A stretch of 64,000 nucleotides of DNA from Bacillota bacterium (GTDB lineage Bacteria > Bacillota > UBA4882 > JBLNCG01). Where the stretch lies: positions 6,851-70,850 of the forward strand of contig JBLNCG010000061.1 in the NCBI GenBank assembly GCA_050260475.1. The letters are read 5' to 3'. The notes under the pieces were generated by a model, which made no database searches, was not told the DNA's origin, and saw only the letters and a list, made by a program, of their open reading frames with translations. Shown here one piece after another: positions 6,924-55,294 of this stretch. Position 1 is the first letter of the stretch, and every line of letters begins with the position of its first letter. The translations under genes and the position numbers were made by a program.

Positions 6924-7165
6924 TTTTAGTATTCTTAAAAGAAGCTCGTTTACCTCAATTTTTGATAATTTTACCAGCCAGCGGTGCTCTGAAGTGGTCA
7001 AAGGCGTCTCCGTTTTTAAAAAAGCCGAACAGGAAGCAAGAAAAGATTTCCCTTATGCCGGGCGATTTGGGCACAATTTGGGCGGCGCCGATTGACTTTC
7101 CTTTTCATTTATGAAAAAATATAATATGTTTGCGTAAAGCCATCATGCCAAAAAAGGGGATATGC

Positions 7166-8624: not shown

Positions 8625-9719
8625 ATGGTATTCGACCTGGATGTCCAGGCTTTCTGGCGGGAAAACGAAAAATGCTTCAAATCCTTTTCCACGGACAAAC
8701 CCCGGGTTCCCGTCTCCTTCTGGCTGGATGACCATTTTCTTTTCGAGGAAATGAAAGTTCCCTCCACCCTGCGTTATTATAATGACCGGGAATATCGTTT
8801 AAACCTTCATAAGCAATGCAACGGCAAGGTGGAAAAAGTGTTAGGGAAGAGGTTTTACGCGGAAGAGGAAGACTTGCTTCCCTCCCCCAACCGCTTTGAA
8901 GTGATTATGGGCGCCCGATGGGAACTCACCGAGGGAGGCACCCCATGGCTGGAATCATCGGTGAAAGATATCGCGGACGTTAAAACCTTAATCAAAAAAT
9001 CGGAACAACTGGACATGAGACGGGAGGCCTTTCCCGCGGGCTGGTCAGAAGAAAAAGCCCGGTATGAAAGAAGCTGCGGGAAGCCGGTAAAACTTCCGGG
9101 CAACAGCTCCCGCGGCCCGGCCACCATGGCCACCAGCATCCTGGGGGTTACCAATACCTGTTTATTCATCATGGACGAACCGGGGGTCATGGAGGAATTT
9201 TTTGCGCTGCTTGCGGTTAAACTCACGGAATACAACAATGCCCTCCGGGACGATACGGACTGCCGCTCCCTGGAGGGGTACTGGCTCACGGACGACAACT
9301 GCTACCTGTTTCCTCCCGCCCAATATGAAAGGTTCTGCGCCCCGGTGCTGGACAAACTCTTCCGGGAGTTCGCGCCGGAGCCGCATCATATCCGCTATCA
9401 GCATTCCGACAGCAACATGGGGCATTTGATGGGAATTTTAAACGATCTCGGCGTAAATGAAGTCAACTTCGGGCCGGAGATCCATCCGCTGGAAATCCGG
9501 AAGGCCATGCCCAACGCCCTGATTTACGGCCAGATACCGCCTATGACCCTTCGAAACGGCGCTCCCGGGGAGATAATAGAAGCAGTCAGACGGGATATCG
9601 AATCGGTGGGAAAAGACGGCGGGCTGGTGGAATGTCCGGCAGGCAGCGTATCCGCAGGCACTCCCCTGAAAAACCTGAAGATTTACATGTGGGCGGTGCA
9701 GAAATACGGAAGATATTAG
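8625..9719 (+). CDS. Uroporphyrinogen decarboxylase (URO-D) family protein, MtaA/CmuA-like methyltransferase-type
   Basis: 364-aa ORF of URO-D-like length and composition, ending in ...GGLVECPAGSV...LKNLKIYMWAVQKYGRY. Family-level call only. Confidence 0.5.
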   Translation: MVFDLDVQAFWRENEKCFKSFSTDKPRVPVSFWLDDHFLFEEMKVPSTLRYYNDREYRLNLHKQCNGKVEKVLGKRFYAEEEDLLPSPNRFEVIMGARWELTEGGTPWLESSVKDIADVKTLIKKSEQLDMRREAFPAGWSEEKARYERSCGKPVKLPGNSSRGPATMATSILGVTNTCLFIMDEPGVMEEFFALLAVKLTEYNNALRDDTDCRSLEGYWLTDDNCYLFPPAQYERFCAPVLDKLFREFAPEPHHIRYQHSDSNMGHLMGILNDLGVNEVNFGPEIHPLEIRKAMPNALIYGQIPPMTLRNGAPGEIIEAVRRDIESVGKDGGLVECPAGSVSAGTPLKNLKIYMWAVQKYGRY

Positions 9720-16439: not shown

Positions 16440-16898
16440 ATGAAGATCCGTACCGTCAAACAAGAAGATTTTCCGGTACTTGCCGCCTATGAAATGGAAA
16501 TCGCGGAAATCTCCTTCGGGGATGAAGCCGTGACCGACCCGGATTTCCACCTCCGGAAGCTGGAAAAGGCGCTCCCTAAAGAAAAAAACGGCATGATGGT
16601 CCTGGAGGCTGACGGTAAGCCCGCAGGCTGGCTATGGATGACCCCCCGCACCAATTCCGTAAGTGGAGAAACATACGTGAATTTTAAGAGCTTTTATATA
16701 GAAGAAGGTTTGCGCGGCACTGAATGGCCGGAGAAACTGCTCAAGTCCGGCCTGGAGTATTGCCGGGCTGCGGGTGCGGAAAGGATTATCGGCAAGGTGC
16801 ATGTGAAAAATCTCCCCATGAGGGCGCTTTATAAAAAGTGCGGCTTTGAGCCGACCCATATGACCATGGAATTGGCTCTGCGCGGTAATAGAAAATGA
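16440..16898 (+). CDS. GNAT family N-acetyltransferase
   Basis: 152 aa with GNAT-like motifs (GKPAGWLWM..., RGTEWPEKLLKSGLEYCRAAGAERIIGKV). Its start overlaps the upstream stop (ATGTAAAATG), indicating translational coupling. Confidence 0.65.
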   Translation: MKIRTVKQEDFPVLAAYEMEIAEISFGDEAVTDPDFHLRKLEKALPKEKNGMMVLEADGKPAGWLWMTPRTNSVSGETYVNFKSFYIEEGLRGTEWPEKLLKSGLEYCRAAGAERIIGKVHVKNLPMRALYKKCGFEPTHMTMELALRGNRK

Positions 16899-17923
16899 AA
16901 ATTAAATGCCTCATCTGGGACCTCGACGGGACGCTTTGGGAGGGCGTTCTGAATGAAGGGGAAATCCATATCCGCCCGGGTGTTATGGAAGTCGTCGCAG
17001 AACTCGACCGGAGGGGGATCCTGCAGACAATCGCCAGCCACAACGATCCGGAACAGGCCGCCGTCAAGCTCAGGGAACTGGAACTCGACAAGTATTTTCT
17101 ACACCCCCAGTTCAATTGGGGCCCGAAGGCGGAAAGCATCCGCCGACTCGTTCGACGGTTCGGTTTCGCCTTGGAATCCATGGCTTTTATAGATGATGAT
17201 CCCTTCCAGCGTTTTGAGGCCGAAAGGTATTTCCCGGGGATGCATGTCTATCCCGCGGAAGAATATGAAGAAATCCTCTCCCGCCCGGAATTCCAACCGG
17301 ATGTTATTACCCGGGAAAGCGGTTTGCGGAGGCGGATGATGCTCGCCGAAGCGGAACGCGCAAAAGCGGGTGCAAGCTTCGCAGGCCCGCGCGAGGATTT
17401 CCTGAAATCATGCGAAATGAAACTTACGGTACGCCCCGGCGCAGGCCCGGATCTGGACCGCATATACGAACTCGCCGCCCGTACCACTCAGTTAAACAAC
17501 ATGCCGGGACTGGTCGATAAATCCATGGTGCAGGCATACCTGGACGGCCCCAAGCGCGCCATTTACGTGGCGGAACTTACGGATCGGTTCGGGAAATACG
17601 GGATAATCGGAGCGGCTTGCCTCGATATCGCCGAAAACGAGGCGGAAACGACCCTGTTTTGCATTTCCTGCCGGATTAAAGGCCGCGGCGTCGCTTATGT
17701 TTTTCTGGGGGAAACCCTCGGTTTGCTCGCGAAAAGACATCCCCGCCTTGAACGTATTCATTGCCGGTGCCGTTCGGACAATAGAAACCGGCCCGCCCTT
17801 CTCCTTTTGCAGATGATGGGGTTTAAACCCGGCGAAAAAACAACGGCCCATACTTGCTATGTATTGCCCCTGCCTGCATCATATGCAAGGCCGGCGTGGC
17901 TTGATGTGCGGATACGGGCTTAA
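16895..17923 (+). CDS. HAD-superfamily phosphatase, subfamily IIIC / FkbH-like domain protein
   Basis: HAD motifs are I WDLDGTLWEG, II IASHN, III WGPKAESI and IV AFIDDDPF. The C-terminal ~150 aa contain Cys residues (FCISCRIKG, HCRCRS) as in the FkbH acyl-loading domain. ATGA overlap with the GNAT gene. Confidence 0.7.
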   Translation: MKIKCLIWDLDGTLWEGVLNEGEIHIRPGVMEVVAELDRRGILQTIASHNDPEQAAVKLRELELDKYFLHPQFNWGPKAESIRRLVRRFGFALESMAFIDDDPFQRFEAERYFPGMHVYPAEEYEEILSRPEFQPDVITRESGLRRRMMLAEAERAKAGASFAGPREDFLKSCEMKLTVRPGAGPDLDRIYELAARTTQLNNMPGLVDKSMVQAYLDGPKRAIYVAELTDRFGKYGIIGAACLDIAENEAETTLFCISCRIKGRGVAYVFLGETLGLLAKRHPRLERIHCRCRSDNRNRPALLLLQMMGFKPGEKTTAHTCYVLPLPASYARPAWLDVRIRA

Positions 17924-17969
17924 TCAAGGCAAACATATATTATATGCGAAGAGATGATAAGGTGTGCAA

Positions 17970-18224
17970 ATGGACAAAACCGACCTGAAGCAGATCATCA
18001 ATGAATATCTCCGCGGCCTTCTCGGCGGACCGGACATTGGCGATAACCATCCCCTGCTGGGACCCGGCGGAATTTTGGATTCAGTAACCGCCGCCGCGCT
18101 CATCCACCGGTTGGAGGAGCGTTTTGGCATAAATCTGACCGACGACGATCTCGCCCTGGAATCTCTCGGAAGCATTAATAGCCTCGCGGAGCTGCTTTTA
18201 CGCTATACGGATCGGGAGGAATAA
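17970..18224 (+). CDS. Acyl carrier protein (phosphopantetheine-binding)
   Basis: 84-aa acidic protein with GGILDSVTAAALIHRLEERFGINL, the canonical G-x-DS-hydrophobic 4'-PP attachment motif. Confidence 0.75.
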   Translation: MDKTDLKQIINEYLRGLLGGPDIGDNHPLLGPGGILDSVTAAALIHRLEERFGINLTDDDLALESLGSINSLAELLLRYTDREE

Positions 18225-18227
18225 AAG

Positions 18228-19040
18228 TTGTTCGCCGACTTGCACATCCATACCAACGCTTCCGACGGAACCTGGGGCGTCCCGGAACTCCTGGAAAGCA
18301 TTAAAAAAAGCCTTATCGGGCTTTTTTCCGTCACGGATCACGATACGGTGGAAAATACCGGCGCCGCTGCCGCAGAAGCGGCGAAGAACGGCGTCTTTTA
18401 TCTTCCCGGGGTTGAAATCGCCTGCGCGTACCGGGAGAAAGAATATCATCTGGTCGCATACGGCATTGACGCGTCAAACCGGCAGCTTTCAGACCTTATG
18501 TCCCATAACAGGAACGTGAGGGAAGACTATAACACCAAAATCGTAAAATTTACGGAATCCCTCGATTCCAGGATCAGTTTGCGGCAATACCGGGAATATC
18601 GTCATGATCCCGGACGGGGCGGCTGGAAAGTCCTCAATTTCCTCCTGGATAAAGGGATCATCGGTGGCCTTCCGGAATATTTCACATTAGTCCAAAATCT
18701 GAAAGAGACCAAACTTTTCAAGGAACCCCAAACAGCCATCCGGATCATTAAGGCCGCCGGGGGTGTTCCCTTCCTCGCCCATCCGAACGCCAATTACAAT
18801 GGCGGGACCATGCCCGAAGAGGAGTTAATGAAATGGGCCGGCTTCGGCATCGACGGCGTCGAATGCTATTCCTCCTACAATGCCCCCGGTGATGAGCGTA
18901 TTTACCTCGATTTTTGCAGGCGGAACCACCTGCTGATATCAGGCGGTTCGGACTGCCACGGCTCATTTCTCCCGAAAAAACTGGGCGAACCCCCGATTAC
19001 TCTGGAGATGTTGAATTTGGGAAATTTGTTTCAAAAATGA
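18228..19040 (+). CDS. PHP-domain metal-dependent phosphoesterase
   Basis: FADLHIHTNASDGTWGVPELL..., VTDHDTV, LAHPN and GGSDCHG are the PHP family His/Asp motifs. TTG start 4 nt after the ACP stop, with RBS GGGAGG. Confidence 0.75.
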   Translation: MFADLHIHTNASDGTWGVPELLESIKKSLIGLFSVTDHDTVENTGAAAAEAAKNGVFYLPGVEIACAYREKEYHLVAYGIDASNRQLSDLMSHNRNVREDYNTKIVKFTESLDSRISLRQYREYRHDPGRGGWKVLNFLLDKGIIGGLPEYFTLVQNLKETKLFKEPQTAIRIIKAAGGVPFLAHPNANYNGGTMPEEELMKWAGFGIDGVECYSSYNAPGDERIYLDFCRRNHLLISGGSDCHGSFLPKKLGEPPITLEMLNLGNLFQK

Positions 19041-19183
19041 TATGAAGGAATTTTAGGCATCACCGAGAAATATCATAAAGAATATAAAAAATTACCAAAT
19101 TATTCATATCGTTCTTTACGGCCTTTGCACTTCGGCGGGATAACCGTTTTCCGGCAAATGCAAATCCTGAATTTACCCCGCCA

Positions 19184-19226
19184 GTGTAGCGTTTCGCAAA
19201 TAGCTTGACGATGTCAAACGCTACAC
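19184..19226 (+). promoter_or_regulatory. Perfect 11-bp inverted repeat GTGTAGCGTTT-N21-AAACGCTACAC, a candidate operator upstream of the sugar kinase/isomerase genes
   Basis: Seen directly. It overlaps a TTGACG -35-like hexamer, and a TAGAAT -10-like element lies downstream at about 19279. Confidence 0.45.
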
Positions 19227-19306
19227 GATATGTAATGTCTCTTATATTCATCGTTAAGCTATTTACGAGACATTGCACTAGAATCAACAAAAAGGAGCCA
19301 AATCTT

Positions 19307-20797
19307 ATGCCTTGCCTGTTGGGATACGATATCGGCAGTTCCTCCATCAAAGCCACGCTCTTGGACGCGGAATCAGGCCTGGCGATCGCTTCCGCCGCCT
19401 CGCCCAAAACCGAGTTGGAGATAAAGGCGCTTAAGCCGGGCTGGGCGGAGCAGGATCCCGCGGTATGGTGGGAAAACTTGATAGCCGCCACTGCGGAGAT
19501 CAAGGCTGAATTCAGGACGGAGCTTCTCGCGGTGGAAGCCATCGGCATCTCCTACCAGATGCACGGCCTGGTGGCGGTGGATAAAACCCATCGCGTACTG
19601 CGGCCTTCCATCATCTGGTGCGACAGCCGCGCGGTATCATACGGGGAGAAAGCTTATACGGAGATCGGACCGGAAACCTGCCTGAAACATTTTTTAAACT
19701 CCCCGGGGAACTTCACCGCCTCCAAGCTGAAATGGGTAAAGGAAAACGAACCGGAAACCTATGCCCGGATTTATAAGATCATGCTGCCCGGCGATTATAT
19801 CGCCATGATGCTGACCGGGGAAATTAAAACCACCCCTTCCGGGCTTTCCGAGGGTATCCTCTGGGATTTCCCGGCTCAAAAACGGGCGGATTTGCTTTTG
19901 GATTATTACGGTATTTCACCGGATCTGCTGGCCGACATGGCGCCCACTTTCGCGGTGCAAGGGGAAGTCACCGCGGAGGCGGCCGGGGAATTGGGCTTGA
20001 AACCCGGCGCAAAGGTGGCATACCGTGCCGGCGACCAGCCGAACAACGCTTTTTCCTTGAATGTGCTGAACCCCGGCGAACTGGCGACAACCGCCGGCAC
20101 CAGCGGCGTGGTTTACGGCGTTGGCCGCGAAGTAAATTACGACCCTGAATCACGGGTTAATACTTTTGTACATGTCAACCACCGCAAGGAACAGCCGCGT
20201 TATGGGATTCTGATGTGTTTAAACGGCACGGGAATTCTGAACCGTTGGCTTAAGAACCTTTTGTCACAGGACGGTTCCCTGTGTTATGAGGAAATGAACC
20301 TGCAGGCCTCCGGTATTCCCATCGGCTCCGGCGGCATTGTCATTCTTCCGTACGGAAACGGCGCGGAACGCACTCTTAAAAACAAAAATATCGGCGGTCA
20401 TATCCACGGTCTGGATTTCAACATTCACGGGCGGCCCCATCTGATGCGCGCTGCTCAGGAAGGGATAGTTTTTGCCCTGAATTACGGCGTAGAGGTTATG
20501 CGGGACATGGGATTAAAAATCTGCGCCGTACGCGCCGGCCACGCCAATATGTTCTTAAGCCCCCTGTTCGGCGAAATTTTCGCCAATACCACCGGCGCCG
20601 GCATCGAGTTATACAATACCGACGGCTCCCAGGGGGCGGCCCGGGGCGCCGGGGTGGGCGCGGGGATCTACCCGGATTTCCACTCCGCCTTCGCCGGCCT
20701 GAAAACCGTAAAGACCATCGAACCGGATCCGAAACTGATCCCTGCCTACCAGGAAGCCTATGCAAGATGGCTGGCGGTCCTGGATGGAAGCCTGTAG
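19307..20797 (+). CDS. xylB: FGGY-family carbohydrate kinase, xylulokinase-like
   Basis: RBS AAAGGAG then ATG 19307. N-terminal LGYDIGSSSIKATLLD is the FGGY phosphate-1 motif. Length 496 aa. A xylose-isomerase-family gene is adjacent. Confidence 0.75.
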   Translation: MPCLLGYDIGSSSIKATLLDAESGLAIASAASPKTELEIKALKPGWAEQDPAVWWENLIAATAEIKAEFRTELLAVEAIGISYQMHGLVAVDKTHRVLRPSIIWCDSRAVSYGEKAYTEIGPETCLKHFLNSPGNFTASKLKWVKENEPETYARIYKIMLPGDYIAMMLTGEIKTTPSGLSEGILWDFPAQKRADLLLDYYGISPDLLADMAPTFAVQGEVTAEAAGELGLKPGAKVAYRAGDQPNNAFSLNVLNPGELATTAGTSGVVYGVGREVNYDPESRVNTFVHVNHRKEQPRYGILMCLNGTGILNRWLKNLLSQDGSLCYEEMNLQASGIPIGSGGIVILPYGNGAERTLKNKNIGGHIHGLDFNIHGRPHLMRAAQEGIVFALNYGVEVMRDMGLKICAVRAGHANMFLSPLFGEIFANTTGAGIELYNTDGSQGAARGAGVGAGIYPDFHSAFAGLKTVKTIEPDPKLIPAYQEAYARWLAVLDGSL

Positions 20798-31819: not shown

Positions 31820-32927
31820 CTACGCAACGCCGGCTTTCCTCCATTTCAGGTATCCTTCGATGAATGCGTCCAATTCTCCGTCCATCACAGCCTCCACGTT
31901 TCCCGTTTCCACCTCCGTACGGTGGTCCTTCACCATGGTATACGGGCAGAATACATAGGAACGAATCTGGCTCCCCCAGGCGATGTCCTGGTGTTCGCCG
32001 CGCAATTCCGAAAGCTTGGTCTCCTGTTCCTGCCGTTTCCGCTCCGCGAGTTTGGCCGCAAGGAGCTTCATAGCAGTGGCGCGGTTCTGGATCTGGGATC
32101 GCTCATTCTGACAGGTAACCACGATTCCGGTAGGAAGGTGGGTGATCCTGATGGCGGATTCGGTTTTGTTCACGTGCTGCCCACCGGCCCCTCCGGAGCG
32201 GAAGGTGTCCACTTTGATCTCCGTAGAATCGATCTGCACATCCTCGTCGTCTTCCAGTTCGGGTAAAATGTCCACGGATGAAAACGAGGTGTGGCGCCGC
32301 GAATTGGCGTCGAAAGGGGAGATGCGCACCAGCCTGTGCACGCCTTTTTCCCCTTTCAAATAACCGTAAGCATTGGTTCCGGAGATTAGAACGGTGGAGC
32401 TTTTAATGCCTGCTTCCTCCCCGGGCAGGAAGTCGATCAACTCGGTTTGAAACCCGGACCGCTCCGCCCACCGCAAATACATGCGCTGCAACATTTCGGC
32501 CCAATCCTGGGATTCAGTGCCGCCCGCGCCGGCGTGGATGATCAGGTAGGCGTTGCGGCTGTCGTATTCCCCCGAAAGCAGAGTGGTAAGCTCCATCTGC
32601 TCAAGGTCTTTCCCCAAAGCGGATAAATCGGCGGCAAATTCGCTCTCCAGCTCAGCATCCCCGGCTACCAGTTCCAGGATCTCCAACAGATCCTGCTGGC
32701 GCTTTTCCAGCATGGATATTTTTTCCACCTGATTTTTTAGGCCGTTCAATTCTTTCAATAGTTTTTGAGCCTTTTGCGGATCGTTCCAGAGATCCTGCTT
32801 TTGGCTCTCCCGTTCCAGTTCGTTTATCTTCCGTATTTTTCCGGGCAGGTCAAAGATAATTCCTCATTTCATCCATCCGCTGCCCCAGTCCTTTAATCTC
32901 CCTCTTTGCCTCAGCCGTATCCAACAT
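31820..32927 (-). CDS. prfB: Peptide chain release factor 2, with programmed +1 ribosomal frameshift at CTT TGA C (shift site 32850..32855)
   Basis: RBS GGGAG then ATG 32927. The first 25 codons are MLDTAEAKREIKGLGQRMDEMRNYL, followed by in-frame TGA preceded by the SD-like GAGG, which is the classic RF2 autoregulatory site. The +1 frame continues DLPGKIRKINELERESQ... into the body carrying SPF (VRISPFDANSRRHTS) and GGQ (RSGGAGGQHVNKTES). Confidence 0.92.
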
Positions 32928-45193: not shown

Positions 45194-46252
45194 TTATAAT
45201 CCCTGACCCGCCGCCTTCGAAGGCGGCAATTTCGCCTTATCCATACCTTCGCGCCATGGGAATTCCCGTGCGGCATCTACAAACGCCGCAAGATTTTCCA
45301 GCGGAACCCCCGCCGGAAGGTCGCATCCGGATGATAAAATAAAATTAGCTTTTCCGTTCATATTCTTAAGGATAATTCCGGTTTCTTCCCGCACCATTTC
45401 CGGAGTGCCCTGCAAGAATATCCCGGACGGATCCACATTGCCGAAGAGGACCAGATCGGGCGGGATCTGCGCCCATACCTCCTGCAGATTCATGCAGGAC
45501 CCCACGCTCAAGCCTTCCGTCCCGATCTTTGAATATGACTCCATAAGATGCCCTATACGGCCGCAATTGTGGAGCACCGGGCTTGCCCCCGCGGATTTTA
45601 TTTTTTCCATGAGCTGTCTCACATAAGCATTGGAAAATTCCCCGGCTTGAGACGGTGAAAACAAACTGGCCGTGGGTTCAAGGATCCAGACGCAATCGGG
45701 ACCGGATGCAAGGATCCCGGAGAGATATTCCTGCAGGAATGCATGGCAGAATTCAAGCAAGCCATGCACAAACTCCGGTTCCAACGCCACGTTCACGGCC
45801 AGTTCGGTGGTTCCCATCAATCTGCCTGCCATGGACAGGGGCCCCAGGATATATCCGCATTTCACCGCCTCCGTAGGCAGATTTTTCACAATCATCCGCA
45901 CAGTGTCGATGAATACATGGAGGCGGCCTTCTCCGCCTGCGGAAGGGAGTTTAAGCTTGGATAAATCCCCGGCGCAGCAAACCGCGTGGCCTTCCACCGC
46001 AGGCGCTTCGTCGCTCATTTTTACTTTTGCGCCGGCGGCCTCGCACTCCACGGTGAGATCCATCATGGGGAAGACAAAATCCGGCCGGAACCTGTCATAC
46101 AAAGAACTGACGGTATCAAACTGTCTGGCTGCCGATGTAAGGTTCTCCTGCAGATTGCCGCCGGTCAGCCGCATGCCGGGAAATCCCGCCAACGGAGCAA
46201 TTATGGGCCGTTTCGCAGAGTTGATCCTATTGTATAATTTCATGTCTTTCAT
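45194..46252 (-). CDS. URO-D family methyltransferase (MtaA/CmuA-like; methylcobamide-dependent methyltransferase)
   Basis: 352-aa URO-D fold protein (RPIIAPLAGFPGMRLTGGNL...). It lies in a cluster with a corrinoid protein. Confidence 0.6.
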   Translation of the reverse strand: MKDMKLYNRINSAKRPIIAPLAGFPGMRLTGGNLQENLTSAARQFDTVSSLYDRFRPDFVFPMMDLTVECEAAGAKVKMSDEAPAVEGHAVCCAGDLSKLKLPSAGGEGRLHVFIDTVRMIVKNLPTEAVKCGYILGPLSMAGRLMGTTELAVNVALEPEFVHGLLEFCHAFLQEYLSGILASGPDCVWILEPTASLFSPSQAGEFSNAYVRQLMEKIKSAGASPVLHNCGRIGHLMESYSKIGTEGLSVGSCMNLQEVWAQIPPDLVLFGNVDPSGIFLQGTPEMVREETGIILKNMNGKANFILSSGCDLPAGVPLENLAAFVDAAREFPWREGMDKAKLPPSKAAGQGL

Positions 46253-46504
46253 CTTCCTTTCCTACTTTAAAATATAACCTTGCGGTTAAAGAGTATATGT
46301 TTTTTTTAAGATGCGTGGTATTTTCTTGGCTTTCACCGGGAAATGCACAAATTATTGCCAAGTATAAAAAAAAATTACAATAAAAATCATCAGAGGCAGG
46401 TATATGATGAAAGTGGATTGAAAATAGTCACCGTCCCGTTTTTTCAAAAAAGGACCTCCGGCGTTCACCTCGAAAATATATAATGTCATTTCCGGGAGGT
46501 GGCC

Positions 46505-47773
46505 ATGGAGGAGTTGGAAAAAGCCGTTAAAACCATCCGGGCATATGCCGATTCCACCCGGGTGCGCGCATTTCTGGTGGACCAGAAAGGTAAAAACATC
46601 CTGCCGGGCGGGGCTTCCGATGATTCCTGCCCATTCTGCCGGATCATACAGGAGAAATTCAAAAAAGCCGAGGAATGCTGCCGTGCGCACCTGTACGGGA
46701 GCTATCAGGCGGAATATTTCGGGGAGGCGTACATATTCTTCTGCCCCTTCGGACTGGTGCACTGGGCGGCGCCGGTCATGGCGGAGCATAGGATGGCCTG
46801 CGCGCTGGTTGCCGGTCCGGTGCTCATGACCAGCCCAGAGGATGCGCTCATCACGGATATTCTTGTAAAACAGGGGATCAGCGCCGATGAAATCGCTTTG
46901 CTTTACCATGCTTTAAACGGCATCCCGATTCTGAAACCCCAGACAGTCAACAGCATGGCGTTGATACTTTTCGCCGCAGCCTCGCATCTCTCGAAATTCG
47001 GCGCCGAAAATATACTGGCCGTAAACAGCGCCTTTTTCGAGCAGCAGGCGTCTATTTCGCAGTGCCTTCACGGCATGAAGAACGGCATTCCGGCGCAAAT
47101 CGCCTACCCGCTGGAAAAGGAAAAGGAACTGGCCGTTAAAATCCGCCTGGGAGACAAGGCGGGCGCAAAAGAGCTATTGAACGAAATCCTCGGCACGATT
47201 TTTTTCGCCCAGGGGAACAGCCTGGAAACCATCCGTACCCGTGTAACCGAACTGGTGGTCACGCTATCCCGCGCCGCTTTGGAAGGCGGGGCCGACAACC
47301 AGAATATTTTGAACCTCAATTCAAGATATCTGGCCGAACTTAACAATATATATACGCTGGATGAAATGGCCATCTGGCTTTCGGGAGTCATGGCGCGCTT
47401 CACGGAAAGCGTTTTTAACCTTTCCAACGTCAAGAACATCGACATCATATACAAAGCTACGACTTACCTGCGTGAAAACTACATGCACGAGATCACCCTG
47501 GAAAAGGTGGCAAAAGTGGTGGCCTTAAGCCCGACCTATTTCAGCAAGCTCTTCAAGGATGAAATGAAGCAAAGCTTCGTTCATTACCTGAATGGACTGC
47601 GCATCGAGAAAAGCAAGAAATTCCTGCTGGATGACGCCATTCCCCTGGTCCATGTGGCAGGCCTGTCCGGCTTTCAGGATCAGAGTTATTTCACGAAAGT
47701 ATTCAAAAAAATGACGGGAGTGTCACCGGGAGAATTCAGAAAATCCCGCGGCCTGGCCAAATACATCGGCTGA
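46505..47773 (+). CDS. AraC-family transcriptional regulator with Cys-rich N-terminal sensor domain (possibly PocR-like)
   Basis: C-terminal AraC HTH is VAKVVALSPTYFSKLFKDEMKQSFVHYLNGLRIEKSKKFL. The N-terminal ~170 aa carry CPFCR...CC...C. RBS GGGAGG then ATG 46505. Confidence 0.75.
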   Translation: MEELEKAVKTIRAYADSTRVRAFLVDQKGKNILPGGASDDSCPFCRIIQEKFKKAEECCRAHLYGSYQAEYFGEAYIFFCPFGLVHWAAPVMAEHRMACALVAGPVLMTSPEDALITDILVKQGISADEIALLYHALNGIPILKPQTVNSMALILFAAASHLSKFGAENILAVNSAFFEQQASISQCLHGMKNGIPAQIAYPLEKEKELAVKIRLGDKAGAKELLNEILGTIFFAQGNSLETIRTRVTELVVTLSRAALEGGADNQNILNLNSRYLAELNNIYTLDEMAIWLSGVMARFTESVFNLSNVKNIDIIYKATTYLRENYMHEITLEKVAKVVALSPTYFSKLFKDEMKQSFVHYLNGLRIEKSKKFLLDDAIPLVHVAGLSGFQDQSYFTKVFKKMTGVSPGEFRKSRGLAKYIG

Positions 47774-47825
47774 AAACCGCAAGTTACGCGGAAAAATGGT
47801 TAAATCAAAAACGGGAGGAAAGAAC

Positions 47826-48458
47826 ATGGATTTAAAACAAATTTCCGAACTGCTGCAGCAGGGCAAGGCGAAGGATGTAAAAGAGCTTGTAGCGAAAGCC
47901 ATTGAGGAGGGCGCCGACCCCGGGGATATCCTGTCTCAGGGATTATTGGACGGCATGGCGGTGATTGGCGCCAAATTCAAGATCAACGAGGTTTACGTGC
48001 CCGATGTACTGATCGCTTCCAGGGCCATGAACGCCGGCATGGAGATCCTCAAACCTCATCTGGTGAAAAGCGGCGTAAAACCCATCGGTAAGGCCATCAT
48101 CGGCACGGTGGAGGGGGATCTGCACGATATCGGAAAAAACCTGGTGAAGATTATGTTTGAAAGCGTGGGCCTCGAGGTCATCGATCTGGGCATCGACGTC
48201 TCCGCGGAAAAATACGTCGCGGCTGTAAAGGAGCATAATCCGCACATTCTCGCCATGTCCGCCCTGCTCACCACGACCATGGTCAACATGGAAAAAATCA
48301 TCAAGGCCACCCAGAAGGAGGGCCTGCGCGGCAGCCTCATCATTATGGTGGGAGGCGCTCCGGTTACGGATAATTTCGCCAAATCCATCGGCGCGGACCT
48401 CTATGCCCCGGACGCCGCCACTGCAGCGGAACTTGCCAGGGATAAGATAGTGCATTAA
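47826..48458 (+). CDS. Corrinoid (cobalamin-binding) protein of a methyltransferase system (MtaC/MtbC-like)
   Basis: The B12-binding Rossmann domain carries GDLHDIGKN (DxHxxG) and the MSALLTTTM block. The N-terminal helical cap is ILSQGLLDGMAVIG. RBS GGGAGG. Confidence 0.85.
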   Translation: MDLKQISELLQQGKAKDVKELVAKAIEEGADPGDILSQGLLDGMAVIGAKFKINEVYVPDVLIASRAMNAGMEILKPHLVKSGVKPIGKAIIGTVEGDLHDIGKNLVKIMFESVGLEVIDLGIDVSAEKYVAAVKEHNPHILAMSALLTTTMVNMEKIIKATQKEGLRGSLIIMVGGAPVTDNFAKSIGADLYAPDAATAAELARDKIVH

Positions 48459-49578: not shown

Positions 49579-50550
49579 TTAGCATACATATTCCGCAAAG
49601 TCCGCCAGAAATTCCTCGAAGAACAACTGGAAATATTCCGGGGCGAAAGCGGAAATGTGCGGCATGATCAGGATATTGTCCAGAGAGCGCAGGGGGGTGT
49701 CCATGGGAAGCGGTTCATTCTTAAATACATCCAGGCAGGCCCAGCGGATTTTTCCGGCGCGGAGCGCCTCATACAAGGCGCTTTCATCGATGCAATTGCC
49801 GCGTCCGACATTATACAGGCAGGCTGTGGGTTTCATCAGGGACAATTCCCCGCTGCCGATCAAATCAGTGGTTTCAGGCGCATTGGGTAACACGGCCACC
49901 AGATGGTCCGCCTCGGGCAAGTATTTTCGCCAATCCGCCAGGGGGATGACCCTGTCCACATTTTCCTCCGGACCCGCCGGAGCCCGTTTGACTCCGATAT
50001 TGCGCATGCCGAAAGCTTTCGTCAGCCTTGCCACATGGCGGCCGATATTGCCCAGACCAAGGATGAGGCAGGTCTTCCCCCGCAGCGTGTGGAGTCGGCA
50101 AAAAAGGAGCTTATCGCACCACGGTTCATCCTTTTGAAGCCGGTATGCGGTCCCCAGGCCGCGCGCCGCAAAAAGCATCATGCCGACGACGGTTTCCGCC
50201 ATAATACGGCCGTGAAACCTGCCGAAAGTGACTTTCAATCCCCGCTCCCGCAAGAATTTTTCCGGAATGCCCTCTTTTCCGGCGGCAAAGGTGCCCACCC
50301 ACTTTAAATGCGGAGCCGAGGCCAGCCACCCGGGTTTAAAGACGGCCACCACGGCTACTTCCGCTTCGGGAAGAAGTTCCAGAAATTCTTTCTCCGTGGA
50401 GCAGTCAATGAAGTCATAGCCGTACCGCTTTAAAGCCTCCGGCACCTCCGGAGGTATCGAAGCGTAATAACTGACCGTATATGGTTTGACGTAAAATAAT
50501 ACTTTTCCCGGCATAACAAGATCCCTTCTCCATAAGCCATAAATCTTCAT
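49579..50550 (-). CDS. D-isomer-specific 2-hydroxyacid dehydrogenase family, NAD-binding
   Basis: NAD-binding GLGNIGRHVARLTKAFGM (GxGxxG 17-18 aa) and the catalytic His/Glu/Arg region. It lies 3 nt downstream of the GT-C gene. Confidence 0.8.
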   Translation of the reverse strand: MKIYGLWRRDLVMPGKVLFYVKPYTVSYYASIPPEVPEALKRYGYDFIDCSTEKEFLELLPEAEVAVVAVFKPGWLASAPHLKWVGTFAAGKEGIPEKFLRERGLKVTFGRFHGRIMAETVVGMMLFAARGLGTAYRLQKDEPWCDKLLFCRLHTLRGKTCLILGLGNIGRHVARLTKAFGMRNIGVKRAPAGPEENVDRVIPLADWRKYLPEADHLVAVLPNAPETTDLIGSGELSLMKPTACLYNVGRGNCIDESALYEALRAGKIRWACLDVFKNEPLPMDTPLRSLDNILIMPHISAFAPEYFQLFFEEFLADFAEYVC

Positions 50551-50553
50551 AAA

Positions 50554-52200
50554 TTACTTCGATAACTGATTCTGATTACTGATCAACGGCTTATGACTCC
50601 ACCGATATCTCTCCCTGATTTTAATATAAGGATCCGCCTTCAGATCATACCCGACAGCAAAATACAGCTGCTTCACAACCTCGCCGCAATGGCGGACTCC
50701 CACGGAAGGCAGCGTTTTATAACTTGCGCACGTTTCCCTGAGAATCCGGTCCGCTTCCGGGAAACCGTCTATAGGCCTAAGGCTGATGAACAGCACGCTC
50801 TTGCCCTTCTGTTCGCGCCAGCGGTCCCAGATGTCGTAATTTCTCCCATAAACAGAACCCGGCCCCAACAGACTGATATGCATCTTTTCCGGGGTGTAGA
50901 ACGAAAGCATGCTGGAAAAAGAATAACTGCTTGTTGCGGCGAGATCCGCGCCGGTTTCTTCTTTAAGCCTGCTCACCGCCTGTCCCATTTCTTCCCAGCC
51001 GTAAATAGGCCCGAGAGCTTTTTCGATTTTCTCTTTTTTGGCGAAAGAAAAAATTTTAGCCCATGAGGAAACCGGCAACGCCGCCAGCAGTAAGGACAAG
51101 GCCATTAAAAGAACAGTTTCCCCCGCAGCGAAGCCGTAAATCCAGCAAAGGATTTTTTTTCGTTTTTCATATTCCGCTTCCCCTCTAACCGTCCCGTTGA
51201 TAAGCAAGGCCAGACCCGCCATGCACGTTCCATATCCGGCGGCGGGCCAATGGGCTCCAATCTCCTTGGTGAAAGACTGCAGAAAAAACAACACGGGCAA
51301 AATCCAACCAGTACAGAGAATGAAGAGGGCGGTGCGCTTTTTAACCGCAGGTCCCGCATGGGATTTTTGCGCCGCTATACGAAATAAAACCGCCAAGGAC
51401 CAGAGCATGGCACCGTATAAGACGGGGGTGACAATAAGCATCATCTGCAAACCCGAATATTTAAATGGGCCGAAGATGTCCAATCTCATCAGATGTCTGT
51501 TTAATAAATTAAATGCGAACGTCGCCCAGCCGTTCTTGCTGTTCCAATACAGAAAAGGCGTAAAGAGGGCCAAGGCGACGGCGAGAGCCAGGTAGGGCTC
51601 CTTGCGCCGCAGCCAGGCGCGTTCCGTCTCGGAAAGGATCAGAAAAAGAAAAATCCCGCCCAAAAGTGGAATAAAGAGAAACTTGGATAGCAGTCCCAGG
51701 CCCGCGGTAACTCCGGCCAAATACCAATACCCGCCGCGGTTTCTTTTTACGGCAAGCCAGACAAGATAAACGGTGATCTGCCAGAAAAGGATGGCCGGGG
51801 CATCAGTAGAGATTAAAATCGATCCCACCGCAAGGCCTGTGGCCGTCAGACTGAAAAATCCCGCCAAAAAGCCCGCCTTTTCCCCTCCCATTTCCCTGCC
51901 CAGCAGGTAAGTGAACCAGGTGGTGAGGGCCGTGCACAATATCGGCGCCATTCTTGACATAAGCAAACTTCCGCCGCCGATCCGGGTGAACAGAGCAACC
52001 AGCCAGGCGATCATGGGCGGATGGTCGTAATAGCCGAGAGCCAAATGCCGGGACCAGGTCCAATGATAGGCCTCATCGCCTGTTAGCGGAATCCGCGCGG
52101 CGAAAAAAAATTTAAAAGCCGTAAAAAGCAGAAGGGACAGAAAAAAACAATTTCGCCCCGTCAAATACCTCCGTATTTTCATGCAGGTTCTCCTTATCAT
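50554..52200 (-). CDS. GT-C fold glycosyltransferase of the PMT_2/ArnT-like family (GT39/GT83-type, polyprenyl-phosphate-sugar dependent)
   Basis: First-loop motifs GDEAYHW and YYDHPPMIAW match the DE and HPP signatures of dolichyl/undecaprenyl-phosphate-sugar transferases. About 11 TM helices plus a C-terminal soluble domain. Confidence 0.7.
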   Translation of the reverse strand: MIRRTCMKIRRYLTGRNCFFLSLLLFTAFKFFFAARIPLTGDEAYHWTWSRHLALGYYDHPPMIAWLVALFTRIGGGSLLMSRMAPILCTALTTWFTYLLGREMGGEKAGFLAGFFSLTATGLAVGSILISTDAPAILFWQITVYLVWLAVKRNRGGYWYLAGVTAGLGLLSKFLFIPLLGGIFLFLILSETERAWLRRKEPYLALAVALALFTPFLYWNSKNGWATFAFNLLNRHLMRLDIFGPFKYSGLQMMLIVTPVLYGAMLWSLAVLFRIAAQKSHAGPAVKKRTALFILCTGWILPVLFFLQSFTKEIGAHWPAAGYGTCMAGLALLINGTVRGEAEYEKRKKILCWIYGFAAGETVLLMALSLLLAALPVSSWAKIFSFAKKEKIEKALGPIYGWEEMGQAVSRLKEETGADLAATSSYSFSSMLSFYTPEKMHISLLGPGSVYGRNYDIWDRWREQKGKSVLFISLRPIDGFPEADRILRETCASYKTLPSVGVRHCGEVVKQLYFAVGYDLKADPYIKIRERYRWSHKPLISNQNQLSK

Positions 52201-53291
52201 TTATAGCTTTCGAACAGCTCCCCCCAGGATGTATGCCTCCTCCATTGATCCACAATCCTCTTCCCCTTCACGGGATACCAGAACATATCGTGATAAAAAT
52301 AGGAAGCGAAGATGAAAATATTCACCAGCGGCGTATGAAAAAACAGCCTTTGCAAGTACTTAAGCGGTCCGAACCAGAGCAGGTCCCCTACGGAGCTGGC
52401 AAAATTGTCCCCCACCGTAAAACCGTAATCGACGCCGGAGATATCCTCCCCGGCCACCTCGATTTCGGCTGGATCCCCGATCCCCAGTCCTCTTTCATGG
52501 GCAATCCGGATAAAAGGCAGGGACATCGGATCAAACCCCATCATTTTAGCGGCTATAGCATCGATGGCCGCCGAGTCCGCGGAGGCCAGCATATAATCCT
52601 TGCAAACCGGAAGCATTGTCCGGGGTCCGGGGCCGTTTCCGGCGGTGGTTCCGTCCATTACCGTAAAAATCCCGGGGTGGATTTCCTTCTGAATCGCCAG
52701 CAGGTCCACCAGGGTTTCATGAATACAGGAGTGGCAATAATGGCGCTTGGTATTTAAGAGGCCTCCGAAGGCGTTTTTCATGGAACCGGTGGTCTGGGTG
52801 TAAATATGGCATTTGGTGGTAGGCAGATGCAGGATGCTCTTCCCGCAAAAGAAATCCGGCACCTTGATGCCGTGCGGAAAGATTTTGTCTAAAACCAGCA
52901 TCTCAGCCTTGGGCTTGTATGTCACCCAATGCATGTCCCTGGATTTGAAGTTGTATTTTGTCTCCACGCCGTAGCGCTTTAAAACATCCACGTACTTGTT
53001 GAGACGCTCTCCCTTGTATGGGTTTGTCACCACCGTACGATTTTCCACGCAAACGGCCCGGTAGTTGTTCGACTGCAGGGCTTTGACCGCCGCCTCAAGC
53101 TGCCAGGGAGTAGTGTTCGCCCCGGGATAAGGAAAATGCCAGGAAATATTGTTCTTCAGAATAACCGGGGCATCCTTCGGCAGGATGTCGCAAAAACCCG
53201 CCATCTCCATGCACTTTATCGTATCCTCGACGACTGTCCGGGGTTTGGTCTTAACCACCGCCACGATTGCTTTCTTGCCCATCGCATACAT
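52197..53291 (-). CDS. DUF362 domain protein
   Basis: KNAFGGLLNTKRHYCH and VMDGTTAGNGPGP resemble the KNxfG and DG...G.GP blocks of DUF362. It overlaps the GT-C gene (ATGA), so the two are co-transcribed. Confidence 0.5.
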   Translation of the reverse strand: MYAMGKKAIVAVVKTKPRTVVEDTIKCMEMAGFCDILPKDAPVILKNNISWHFPYPGANTTPWQLEAAVKALQSNNYRAVCVENRTVVTNPYKGERLNKYVDVLKRYGVETKYNFKSRDMHWVTYKPKAEMLVLDKIFPHGIKVPDFFCGKSILHLPTTKCHIYTQTTGSMKNAFGGLLNTKRHYCHSCIHETLVDLLAIQKEIHPGIFTVMDGTTAGNGPGPRTMLPVCKDYMLASADSAAIDAIAAKMMGFDPMSLPFIRIAHERGLGIGDPAEIEVAGEDISGVDYGFTVGDNFASSVGDLLWFGPLKYLQRLFFHTPLVNIFIFASYFYHDMFWYPVKGKRIVDQWRRHTSWGELFESYK

Positions 53292-53335
53292 CCTCTCCCA
53301 TGTGATTTGTGGAAATATGGTTTATAATTCGCGCT

Positions 53336-54019
53336 TCACGCTTCATTCTTCACCCTTCTGAGCCCCAGCCTGTTTGCATACTTTACGCATTTGGTGATCA
53401 GATGCACCCAGACGGGCGCCCGCCGTCCGTAAAAATCTCCGGCGGCGGGCAGGCCGGTCAAAAATTCCGCCGCAGAAGAAAAATGGGCAAGTATCGAACC
53501 GCACCTTCCCAATTCCCACCGGGTATGACAGTCCGTTCCCGCGATAAGGGGTTTGCCGAAACAACGTCCCAAAGCGGTTGCGGCTGCATCATCCCCGGCG
53601 AAAACCGTACGGCCGTTGAACCCCTCAATAATATCCACCTCACGGATAATCCGCCTCAAAACGCCTGCATCCAACACATGGCGGCGCAGGCGGTCGCAAG
53701 GATGAGGCGCAACCACCAGGCCGCCCTGTTCCTTGATCCGGGATAGGGTTTCGTAAATCCCCAGCCCTCCGGGGATCCGTACGGATAAAAAGAGGCCCGT
53801 TATCTCCCCTTCCCGGGCAAGGATCTCTTCCCCGATAATCAAGCGGAAAGGCAAATCCCGGTCAGCCAGGCGCAGGGCTCCTTCAATGGTATCGTGATCC
53901 GTCACCGCGATGCAGCCGATCCCCCTTATACCGGCAATCCGGGCCACATCCTCCAGGGAAACCAGGCTGTCCGGGGAATAAACGGTATGCACGTGCAGGT
54001 CCGCGCGGATGAGGTGCAT
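53336..54019 (-). CDS. PHP-domain phosphoesterase
   Basis: ADLHVHTVYSPDS, VTDHDT and VAPHP are PHP metal-binding motifs. 227 aa. Confidence 0.8.
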   Translation of the reverse strand: MHLIRADLHVHTVYSPDSLVSLEDVARIAGIRGIGCIAVTDHDTIEGALRLADRDLPFRLIIGEEILAREGEITGLFLSVRIPGGLGIYETLSRIKEQGGLVVAPHPCDRLRRHVLDAGVLRRIIREVDIIEGFNGRTVFAGDDAAATALGRCFGKPLIAGTDCHTRWELGRCGSILAHFSSAAEFLTGLPAAGDFYGRRAPVWVHLITKCVKYANRLGLRRVKNEA

Positions 54020-54052
54020 GAAATGGCCTTCCTTTGATATAAAACATCGGAT

Positions 54053-55024
54053 TTAACTGATATAAATCAAAACCATGCTGGTGACAATCCACAAAAAAAT
54101 ATTCACAATAAAAGGCGTATCGGTCAAGAGCACCTCTTCGGGTTCTTCGCCGAGCCCCTCGCGGTGTGTAAGGAGCAGATAGCGGAAGACTCCGTATAAT
54201 ACGAAGGGTATCGTAAGCATCAGCCTCTCCCCGTGCTTGGAACCGAAAGTATAGAGGAAATATCCGGTGAGTGTGGAAGCGGTGATAATCGTGATTGCCT
54301 GATCCAGAAAAACCGCGGAATATGATTCCAGCACCTTTCGCCCTCCGTTGCCGTTCGCATTGGCCGCGAAGAGCTCCTGCCGCCTTTTGATGAGGGCCAG
54401 GAAAAGGGCCAGCAACAAAGTGCAGACCAAAAGCCACGATGAATGCGGCACGCGAATCAACACCGTTCCGGCCAGCGTCCTGAGGACAAATCCTGCCGCG
54501 ATGGTCATGACGTCTATAATCGCCAGTTTTTTTAAATACATGCTGTATAGTATGATCAAAACCGCATATCCGGAAACAACCCACAAAAACTCCGGCCCCA
54601 ACTGCAAGGCAATATACGCGCCCGCTGAAAAGGCCAAGACCATTACCGCCAATGCCGCCGGTATGGATATGGCTCCCCGCGCCAGAGGACGCAAGCTCTT
54701 GCGCGGATGCGCCCGATCGTGTTCCAGATCCATCAAATCATTGATGATATACAACCCTGAAGAAACCAGGCAAAATACGGCAAATCCCAGCGCCACCCGT
54801 ATCAAATCCGGGATCACGAAAAAACGGCGCGCAAAAACTATCCCCGCGAAAATAAAGAAGTTCTTGGTCCATTGTTTACAACGCAAGGTTTGAAGGATAA
54901 CCGAAATTCCACTTCCTGCGTTCCCCCGCAGTCCGGGCTTTTTAACGGCAGCCGCCCGTGCGATTCCAAACACCTTCTTTTTTATGAAGTCCACGAATCG
55001 TAGAGTTAATGAGTGGAGAGTCAA
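54053..55024 (-). CDS. UbiA-family prenyltransferase of the decaprenyl-phosphate phosphoribosyltransferase (DPPR synthase, Rv3806c-like) type
   Basis: LRCKQWTKNFFIFAGIVFA matches the HQWVKN N-terminal motif of DPPR synthases. The first Asp-rich motif NDLMDLEHDRAHPRK is NDxxDxxxD. 8-9 TM helices. Confidence 0.75.
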   Translation of the reverse strand: MTLHSLTLRFVDFIKKKVFGIARAAAVKKPGLRGNAGSGISVILQTLRCKQWTKNFFIFAGIVFARRFFVIPDLIRVALGFAVFCLVSSGLYIINDLMDLEHDRAHPRKSLRPLARGAISIPAALAVMVLAFSAGAYIALQLGPEFLWVVSGYAVLIILYSMYLKKLAIIDVMTIAAGFVLRTLAGTVLIRVPHSSWLLVCTLLLALFLALIKRRQELFAANANGNGGRKVLESYSAVFLDQAITIITASTLTGYFLYTFGSKHGERLMLTIPFVLYGVFRYLLLTHREGLGEEPEEVLLTDTPFIVNIFLWIVTSMVLIYIS

Positions 55025-55294
55025 TAATCCGGAGTATAAAGTCTATATTTCCTGTCTTCGTCTTATTGTACACCAGTTTACCATCGGTTTCAACCGTTTT
55101 CGGTCTGGCAAATATAACAATTGTGTCTTATATTCATCGTGGGTAAAATCATACTCTGGCGCTGTAACGGACGGCGGCTACATAAATCCTGATTGAATAT
55201 AGCCGGCCCCTGGAGATGGAGATTAAGTATGGAAAGTCCTTTTTTCGAAAGAATAATTATTGTCTATATTGGATAACAAGCGGTTCTTATAATA

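Follow-up and report, generated by a model that had tools for sequence, protein, structure and literature searches.

What does an uncultured member of the Bacillota make with an operon that joins a UbiA-family transferase to a PHP phosphoesterase, a DUF362 protein, a GT-C glycosyltransferase and a 2-hydroxyacid dehydrogenase? The five genes lie on the minus strand at 49579-55024 of the window, the whole 64,000-nt stretch of contig JBLNCG010000061.1 that was analysed here, and a first-pass annotation had likened them to the mycobacterial pathway for lipid-linked ribose and arabinose. Our results suggest that the operon probably builds a pentofuranose donor on polyprenyl phosphate and delivers its sugar to an acceptor on the outer side of the membrane, with the DUF362 protein as a candidate for the enzyme that modifies the lipid-linked ribofuranose.

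The UbiA enzyme and its phosphoribose site

The first gene of the operon (54053-55024, minus strand) encodes, from a TTG start, a UbiA-family protein of 323 residues; the public gene model uses a GTG start at 54973 and gives 306 residues. The protein passes NF008977, the equivalog model for decaprenyl-phosphate phosphoribosyltransferase (252.5 bits, cut-off 234), and reaches 202.2 bits with the second NCBIfam model for this enzyme (cut-off 207). With the other UbiA models compared, which describe heme O synthase, 4-hydroxybenzoate prenyltransferases, GGGP-type transferases and chlorophyll synthase, it stays far below the cut-offs (61 versus 269, 34.5 versus 210 and 32 versus 275 bits). Its best relative of known structure is Rv3806c of Mycobacterium tuberculosis (PDB 8j8j, E = 5.9e-34), and the next UbiA structure follows at an E-value of 1.3e-4. 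The (H/K)QW(V/T)KN and NDxxDxxxD signatures, on which the first-pass annotation had relied to place the protein among the decaprenyl-phosphoribose (DPPR) synthases, are present as KQWTKN (residues 50-55) and NDLMDLEHD (residues 95-103), and the placement itself held against the quinone, heme O and chlorophyll prenyltransferases.

The residues of Rv3806c that bind 5-phospho-alpha-D-ribose-1-diphosphate (PRPP) have been catalogued, and other UbiA enzymes do not share the phosphoribose site (PMC10994848). Transferred to the window protein through a HMMER alignment, ten of the eleven positions are kept, R22, K28, Y70, N73, D77, K87, R90, Y138, K143 and Y157 of Rv3806c corresponding to R48, K54, Y92, N95, D99, K109, R112, Y160, K165 and F179, and all ten are invariant among 21 homologues. 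They include the counterparts, N95 and D99, of the magnesium ligands N73 and D77. Judged by its sequence, the protein is a polyprenyl-phosphate 5-phosphoribosyltransferase, and it is highly likely to convert PRPP and polyprenyl phosphate to polyprenyl-phosphate-ribofuranose-5-phosphate. The opposite reading, an ordinary prenyltransferase that serves the synthesis of quinones, heme O, chlorophyll or archaeal-type lipids in a cluster unrelated to glycosylation, would agree with the general UbiA match in Pfam and with the automatic JGI names of homologues (4-hydroxybenzoate polyprenyltransferase). However, the low scores with every such model, the phosphoribose-binding residues and the GT-C and flippase-like genes among the neighbours make it very improbable.

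UbiA-type polyprenyl phosphoribose synthases were shown by experiment to act together with a flippase and a GT-C enzyme in adding pentofuranoses outside the cytoplasm, while auxiliary epimerases, either a short-chain dehydrogenase/reductase (SDR) or DprE1/E2, set the sugar as ribo-, xylo- or arabinofuranose; such systems are widespread and occur in gram-positive bacteria as well (Kelly et al., PNAS 2024, PMC11127046). The UbiA clade of the window has at least 589 confirmed relatives (by UbiA alignment, one genome per species) in Bacillota, Chloroflexota, Chlorobiota, Bacteroidota, Acidobacteriota, Planctomycetota, Myxococcota and other phyla, and NCBI already names the window protein decaprenyl-phosphate phosphoribosyltransferase. 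The initial view that a lipid-linked pentofuranose system would be unusual outside the Corynebacterineae is hence outdated: the pathway type is already known, and finding it in a Firmicute is no surprise on its own.

Within this clade, ten Chloroflexota loci (L031, L033, L035, L040, L048, L060, L068, L069, L072 and L080) show a different setting. There UbiA is followed by a GHMP kinase and mostly also by an amino-acid-kinase-family gene that looks mevalonate- or isopentenyl-phosphate-kinase-like; an FtsJ/TlyA methyltransferase gene precedes UbiA on the opposite strand, and DUF362 is absent.

Phosphoesterase, glycosyltransferase and gene order

The UbiA protein has no HAD domain. The second gene (53336-54019, minus strand) encodes a stand-alone PHP-family phosphoesterase of 227 residues with PHP and PHP_C domains, in which the canonical metal-binding motifs HVH, TDHD, GEE, APHP and GTDCH can be read, and which weakly matches NCBIfam models of PHP enzymes acting on ribose phosphates. 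In L081, L168, L169, L170 and L171 a PHP gene comes directly 3' of UbiA, and L084 carries one in the locus too; this is what would be expected of a 5'-phosphatase, the role that the first-pass annotation had suggested as possible for it. Given this conserved adjacency and the intact metal site, we think it rather probable that the enzyme removes the 5'-phosphate of polyprenyl-phosphate-ribose-5-phosphate, a function that would then probably be supplied by another fold than the HAD domain of the systems of Kelly et al. A second PHP-domain protein of the window (18228-19040) is encoded between HAD hydrolase and FGGY sugar kinase genes (region 16895-20797), a position unrelated to the operon.

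The fourth gene (50554-52200, minus strand) encodes a GT-C glycosyltransferase of 548 residues with a C-terminal extracytoplasmic domain, which NCBI names glycosyltransferase family 39 protein. The assignment as ArnT/PMT-like, already made at first pass, agrees with both the Pfam match (PMT_2, E = 5.2e-35) and the AlphaFold2 (AF2) model (pLDDT 91.6), for which Foldseek returns ArnT as the best match (5ezm, E = 4.5e-10, TM 0.57), followed by Pmt4, ALG9, OST, Emb, AftD and AftA. The DE...HPP motifs described earlier are found as GDE (D42, E43), the acidic motif of the first extracytoplasmic loop, and DHPP (59-62); residues D42, E43 and H60 do not vary among 39 homologues. The protein shares with ArnT, the undecaprenyl-phosphate-L-Ara4N:lipid A transferase, the GT-C fold, the acidic first-loop motif and, in the proposed reaction, a pentose donor linked to a polyprenyl monophosphate. 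In contrast, the two are only 14% identical, the ArnT equivalog model NF009784 gives 28 bits against a cut-off of 567, and the donor would here derive from PRPP instead of UDP-Ara4N. From the predicted structure we are fairly confident that the enzyme transfers a pentofuranose to a cell-envelope acceptor, which is presumably not lipid A, as the host belongs to the Bacillota.

The closest GT-C homologues (45-51% identity) share contigs with the closest UbiA homologues. The complete order UbiA-PHP-DUF362-GT-C-dehydrogenase is repeated in L082, which is an independent assembly of the same organism. L168, L169 and L171 contain gyrB and then UbiA-PHP-GT-C without DUF362, L170 has UbiA-PHP-DUF362 and GT-C with a 167-residue protein of four transmembrane segments (TM) before the latter, and L081 reads rodA-UbiA-PHP-DUF362. 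The conserved core in close relatives is UbiA-PHP-GT-C, and DUF362 is an optional insert between phosphatase and GT-C; the dehydrogenase gene recurs convincingly in a single other locus, L158. More distant loci keep other combinations: dehydrogenase-GT-C-DUF362-UbiA in L158, DUF362-GT-C-UbiA in L143 and UbiA-GT-C-DUF362 in L145. In L083, UbiA-LPG_synthase_TM-DUF362 stands amid the LCP, Bac_transf, GT2 and GtrA genes of a wall-polymer locus. In L084, from Calderihabitans maritimus, the order is GT-C-UbiA-LPG_synthase_TM-PHP with a divergent DUF362-ABC1 pair, and the GT-C belongs to the AftA family (AftA_N, E = 1.4e-23; AftA_C, E = 7.7e-15). Linkage of UbiA to a GT-C gene is thus kept in L168-L171, L143, L145, L158 and L084. 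In the first 80 loci blastp detected no GT-C homologues, as these enzymes diverge too far for such a comparison; with Pfam and inspection of the contigs, several different GT-C families came to light beside the UbiA/DUF362 module. Flippase-like candidates in the relatives are LPG_synthase_TM-like, EamA-like or small four-TM proteins. Multi-TM proteins without a Pfam match (7-14 predicted TM) also adjoin UbiA or DUF362 (L034:10822-12135, L083:9118-10401, L017:4465-5931 and L165:4052-5896) and may be unclassified GT-C enzymes or transporters.

The coordinates of the open reading frames and the Pfam matches (UbiA; PHP/PHP_C; DUF362; PMT_2; 2-Hacid_dh_C) bear out the first-pass description of five co-directional minus-strand genes of these families. 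The spacings between the longest reading frames are 33, 44, -4 and 3 nt; the last two agree with the values given before, whereas the first two had been stated one too high, as 34 and 45. With the shorter public starts, taken from the same DNA in L082, the genes are 33, 53, 14 and 39 nt apart and still spaced as in an operon. Just 5' of the UbiA gene, inside a 640-nt AT-rich intergenic region, there is a sigma-70-like promoter match on the minus strand (TTGAAA-17-TACAAT, 55065-55093), a consensus match only, with 10 of 12 positions; no convincing terminator is seen within the operon. The UbiA, DUF362 and GT-C proteins are present in public databases at 100% identity.

DUF362: linkage, fold and candidate active site

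The third gene (52197-53291, minus strand; 364 residues, or 361 from the public start at 53282) encodes the protein that NCBI names only DUF362 domain-containing protein. Among 80 loci anchored on UbiA, a DUF362 homologue occurs in 22, in most cases downstream on the same strand and no more than 30 nt away, and there DUF362 (45-67% identity) is more conserved than UbiA (42-51%). Conversely, 25 of 80 metagenome loci anchored on DUF362 contain this UbiA clade; in both sets DUF362 lies mostly no more than 150 nt from UbiA on the same strand. The linkage is seen in more than ten phyla, including Bacillota, Chlorobiota, Bacteroidota, Acidobacteriota, Methylomirabilota and Myxococcota. When the count is limited to DUF362-anchored loci flanked by 2.5 kb or more on each side, UbiA is found within 2.5 kb in 11 of 26, compared with a fraction of a percent that we estimate as the chance expectation for two single-copy genes. 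Genes found repeatedly near DUF362 also include those for EamA-type transporters (11 loci), flippase-like LPG_synthase_TM proteins (7) and ABC1 kinases (4). Many DUF362 genes stand apart from UbiA, for example beside enolase, so that a broader housekeeping role is conceivable. No gene of the DprE1/E2 type was noticed in the inspected neighbourhoods, among which no systematic search was made.

Atypical kinases of the ABC1/UbiB type recur beside DUF362 at L094:4044-6260, L084:3538-4725 and L014:10893-12053. The reading frame of about 738 residues in L094 may be an ABC1-LPG_synthase_TM fusion, going by blastp clustering of crude reading-frame calls only.

The AF2 model of the DUF362 protein (pLDDT 84, pTM 0.87) has the two-domain alpha/beta fold of LarA and resembles only racemases/epimerases of the LarA superfamily; the Foldseek support is weak (LarA-like 9q3k, E = 4e-3, TM 0.38). 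DUF362 and the LarA domain DUF2088 are placed in one Pfam clan, CL0471 (PMC11770544). Sequence comparison does not reproduce this relation: Pfam gives PF04015 only and no DUF2088/LarA, a DUF362 profile finds chance matches only and no LarA among PDB sequences, and hhalign against a small LarA alignment, built from the LarA homologue of L028 and PDB alignment printouts, yields a non-significant probability below 1%. Hence no residue-level homology between DUF362 and LarA is claimed. The L028 gene (L028:12953-14206) is a genuine, Mar2-like LarA-family member (E = 5e-37) located 2.8 kb downstream of DUF362 in a Bacillota locus; its neighbours examined do not include lar cofactor genes, and the proximity is probably coincidental.

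In the close subfamily, the histidines H52, H155, H162, H184, H187, H191, H205 and H334 and the lysines K46, K160, K172 and K202 are invariant, while more divergent relatives lose those at 162, 172, 184, 187 and 191. Several of them lie in the loop after strand 152-156, which reads KCH162-IYTQTTGSM-K172-NAFGG...H184..H187..H191. Inteins, either mini-inteins or of the LAGLIDADG endonuclease type, interrupt several homologues (P0242, P0243, P0245, P0249, P0251, P0299, P0315 and L070:10868-13525), in every case between K160 and C161/T161 of the invariant HLPTxK|CH loop. As inteins usually sit at functionally critical sites, their position independently supports the importance of the KCH162...K172 loop. 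Towards the C-terminus, approximately residues 300-340 form a moderately hydrophobic segment rich in aromatic side chains, a composition compatible with interfacial membrane binding. The iron-sulphur role suggested by the Pfam description was rejected for this subfamily, which has one near-invariant cysteine only, replaced by threonine in many homologues. A function as 5'-phosphatase is unlikely, since PHP and DUF362 are found together within operons and other operons consist of UbiA-PHP-GT-C with no DUF362.

On balance we favour the view that DUF362 alters the lipid-linked sugar; that the alteration is an epimerisation is a more tentative proposal, and the use of a nickel-pincer-type cofactor is quite doubtful. 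A system confined to ribofuranose has to be weighed against this. UbiA, PHP and GT-C would then make and use polyprenyl-phosphate-ribofuranose, the dehydrogenase would be a passenger, and DUF362 would leave the sugar unchanged and serve in carrier handling, as a second phosphoesterase or in housekeeping tied to polyprenyl-phosphate metabolism. Such a system would fit the operons without DUF362, the frequent location of DUF362 away from UbiA, the lack of lar cofactor genes nearby, and the identity of about 65% across phyla and the inteins, both typical of core housekeeping proteins. We nevertheless consider it rather unlikely. The fold resembles solely racemases/epimerases, and the optional position between phosphatase and GT-C recalls the epimerase ORF13, which is found in one of two similar Citrobacter youngae clusters (O2 versus O1; the other reference genes are ORF15, ORF14 and ORF12; PMC11127046). 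The AftA-family GT-C of Calderihabitans points to arabinofuranose as the donor sugar, although the examined stretch of that locus encodes no DprE1/E2, and the coexistence of DUF362 with a PHP phosphatase speaks against a simple phosphatase role.

The last gene of the operon (49579-50550, minus strand; 323 residues) raises the further alternative of a two-enzyme epimerisation, in which DUF362 would oxidise C2' of polyprenyl-phosphate-ribose and the NAD-dependent dehydrogenase would reduce the product to arabinose, analogous to DprE1 and DprE2. Both genes are in the operon, the dehydrogenase gene starting 3 nt past the GT-C stop, and its product belongs to the D-isomer 2-hydroxyacid dehydrogenases (2-Hacid_dh_C, E = 3.9e-48) and keeps the GxGxxG motif and the Arg/Glu/His catalytic residues as read from the sequence. 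The four families also recur together in the divergent locus L158, where the dehydrogenase is 46% identical. Apart from L082, however, L158 is the only clear case: three weak matches were found in one set of 80 loci and one in another 80, and L170, L081, L083 and L084 have none. Moreover, a LarA-type enzyme gives the hydride back by itself and does not depend on a second, reducing enzyme (PMC11770544). We therefore regard a joint action of the two proteins as improbable. The dehydrogenase, which scores under every NCBIfam equivalog cut-off, is a generic member of its family with an uncertain role in the operon, and its earlier casting as a general part of the pathway is not borne out. For DUF362, a redox role at C2' is plausible in the form of a C2' or C3' redox epimerisation through the LarA-like fold, but it is not obligatory, as the gene is optional in close relatives; this also speaks against a pathway that needs both proteins.

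Proposed pathway and comparison with known systems

In the pathway that we propose, UbiA would move 5-phosphoribose from PRPP onto polyprenyl phosphate, the carrier probably being undecaprenyl and not decaprenyl, and the PHP phosphoesterase would strip the 5'-phosphate to leave polyprenyl-phosphate-ribofuranose. On the cytoplasmic face, the LarA-like DUF362 protein would then change the identity of the sugar by epimerisation via a short-lived keto sugar, yielding arabinofuranose if C2' is inverted or xylofuranose if C3' is, in place of the DprE1/DprE2 or SDR epimerase of known systems. The dehydrogenase may contribute a reduction or a second modification, or may be unrelated. The donor would be flipped across the membrane, a step for which the operon has no dedicated gene, and the ArnT-like GT-C would pass the pentofuranose to a cell-envelope acceptor. 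More tentative still than epimerisation itself is the idea that the UbiA-linked DUF362 subfamily forms a new class of single-enzyme epimerases for lipid-linked pentofuranoses, which would shuttle a hydride in the manner of LarA, perhaps by means of a nickel-pincer or related cofactor bound through K172 and histidines, and replace DprE1/DprE2.

The operon resembles the three-component systems of Kelly et al. in combining a PRPP-using UbiA-type synthase, removal of the 5'-phosphate and a GT-C that would use the lipid-linked pentofuranose outside the membrane, with an optional auxiliary enzyme fixing the sugar identity and with linkage of the genes at the operon level. It differs in its phosphatase, here a separate PHP protein and there a fused HAD domain, in lacking a MATE flippase gene, and in its candidate epimerase, here the LarA-like DUF362, possibly with the 2-hydroxyacid dehydrogenase, and there an SDR or DprE1/E2. 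By Pfam and structure its GT-C is classed as ArnT/PMT_2-like, compared with CAZy family GT136 in their systems; and the host is an uncultured Bacillota bacterium. Neither PHP nor DUF362 is mentioned in the text or supplement of that study (PMC11127046).

The mycobacterial decaprenyl-phosphoarabinose pathway (Rv3806c, Rv3807c, DprE1/DprE2 and the Emb/Aft GT-C enzymes) shares with the operon a homologous synthase and the logical order of synthase, phosphatase, epimerisation and GT-C, and an AftA-family GT-C is tied to the same module in Calderihabitans maritimus. Unlike there, the GT-C of the window is not of the Emb or Aft type, and no DprE1 (FAD oxidase), DprE2 (SDR reductase) or PAP2 phosphatase is encoded in the operon or among the scanned reading frames of the window of at least 230 residues. 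D-arabinofuranosylation of the group IV pilin of Pseudomonas aeruginosa (PA7/Pa5196) likewise depends on an Rv3806c homologue outside the Actinobacteria that makes a polyprenyl-phosphate-pentofuranose for a GT-C; that system, however, has DprE1/E2 homologues and the pilin-modifying GT-C TfpW and neither DUF362 nor PHP. The nickel-pincer-nucleotide racemases/epimerases of the LarA superfamily (DUF2088), finally, differ from DUF362, which shows no similarity to them detectable by HMMER or hhalign, has no lar cofactor genes nearby and carries the aromatic-rich C-terminal extension. Their substrates are soluble 2-hydroxy acids, while the partners of DUF362 are membrane enzymes of lipid-linked sugar synthesis.

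Several observations weigh against the proposed pathway or against the part given to DUF362. The pathway assignment draws on sequences, gene neighbourhoods and predicted folds. The single change in the PRPP site of UbiA replaces Q135 of Rv3806c, which contacts the ribose O3, by I157. A dedicated flippase of the MATE or SMR type is absent from the operon, whose sole membrane proteins are UbiA and the GT-C. UbiA is missing within 2.5 kb in 15 of the 26 well-flanked DUF362 loci, and the very high conservation of DUF362 and its inteins fit a housekeeping role better than that of an accessory enzyme diversifying serotypes. The genes larB, larC and larE were found neither in the 64-kb window nor beside DUF362 in the inspected related loci. 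H162, K172 and H187 of DUF362 may correspond to H174, K184 and H200 of LarA (numbering checked), of which K184 binds the cofactor, H200 binds nickel and H174 is catalytic together with H108; this match is manual and topological, based on the same His-x9-Lys spacing and position. To our knowledge, all LarA-type enzymes act on 2-hydroxy acids and not on glycosyl phosphates.

The surroundings of the operon contain further features of their own. A corrinoid methyltransferase-type cluster adjoins it at 45194-48458, with a URO-D/MtaA-like gene, a PocR-AraC regulator and a B12-binding protein, and a second URO-D-like gene lies 40 kb off at 8625-9719. The only MATE-family transporter of the window (7130-8527), a weak Polysacc_synt_3 match, is 42 kb from the operon and gives no evidence for a linked flippase. 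The minus-strand prfB gene for release factor 2 (31820-32900) carries, at about 32855, the sequence CTT TGA C of the classical site for a programmed +1 frameshift, its N-terminal part of about 25 codons being in another frame than the main reading frame. Rfam and tRNA scans of the window gave no matches.

The pathway type itself is known, and the interest lies in the parts that depart from known systems: the PHP-fold phosphatase and, as the new element, DUF362 with its link to the pathway as a candidate epimerase; the GT-C family and the missing flippase gene differ as well. DUF362 is a family of about 6,500 representative clusters (6,544 matches at E <= 1e-3 in a library of 50% representatives), of which 395 are close to the window protein (E <= 1e-30). 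At the 90% identity level it has more than 8,000 matching clusters at 64-80% identity, all unnamed, and no functional assignment of DUF362/PF04015 was found in the literature, including in combination with polyprenyl phosphoribose synthases and Firmicutes. The linkage to synthase, flippase-like and GT-C genes in many phyla, the optional position between phosphatase and transferase, the LarA-like fold and the inteins in the loop give this family a concrete, testable role. If DUF362 is an epimerase, it would provide a route to lipid-linked arabinofuranose that is independent of DprE1/DprE2, would widen the reach of LarA-type chemistry beyond hydroxy acids to sugars on lipid carriers, and would mark unrecognised pentofuranose-containing envelope glycans in many uncultured lineages. 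Since the UbiA-DUF362 pair occurs in many phyla, glycosylation with lipid-linked arabino- or xylofuranose would in that case be far more common than is now recognised.

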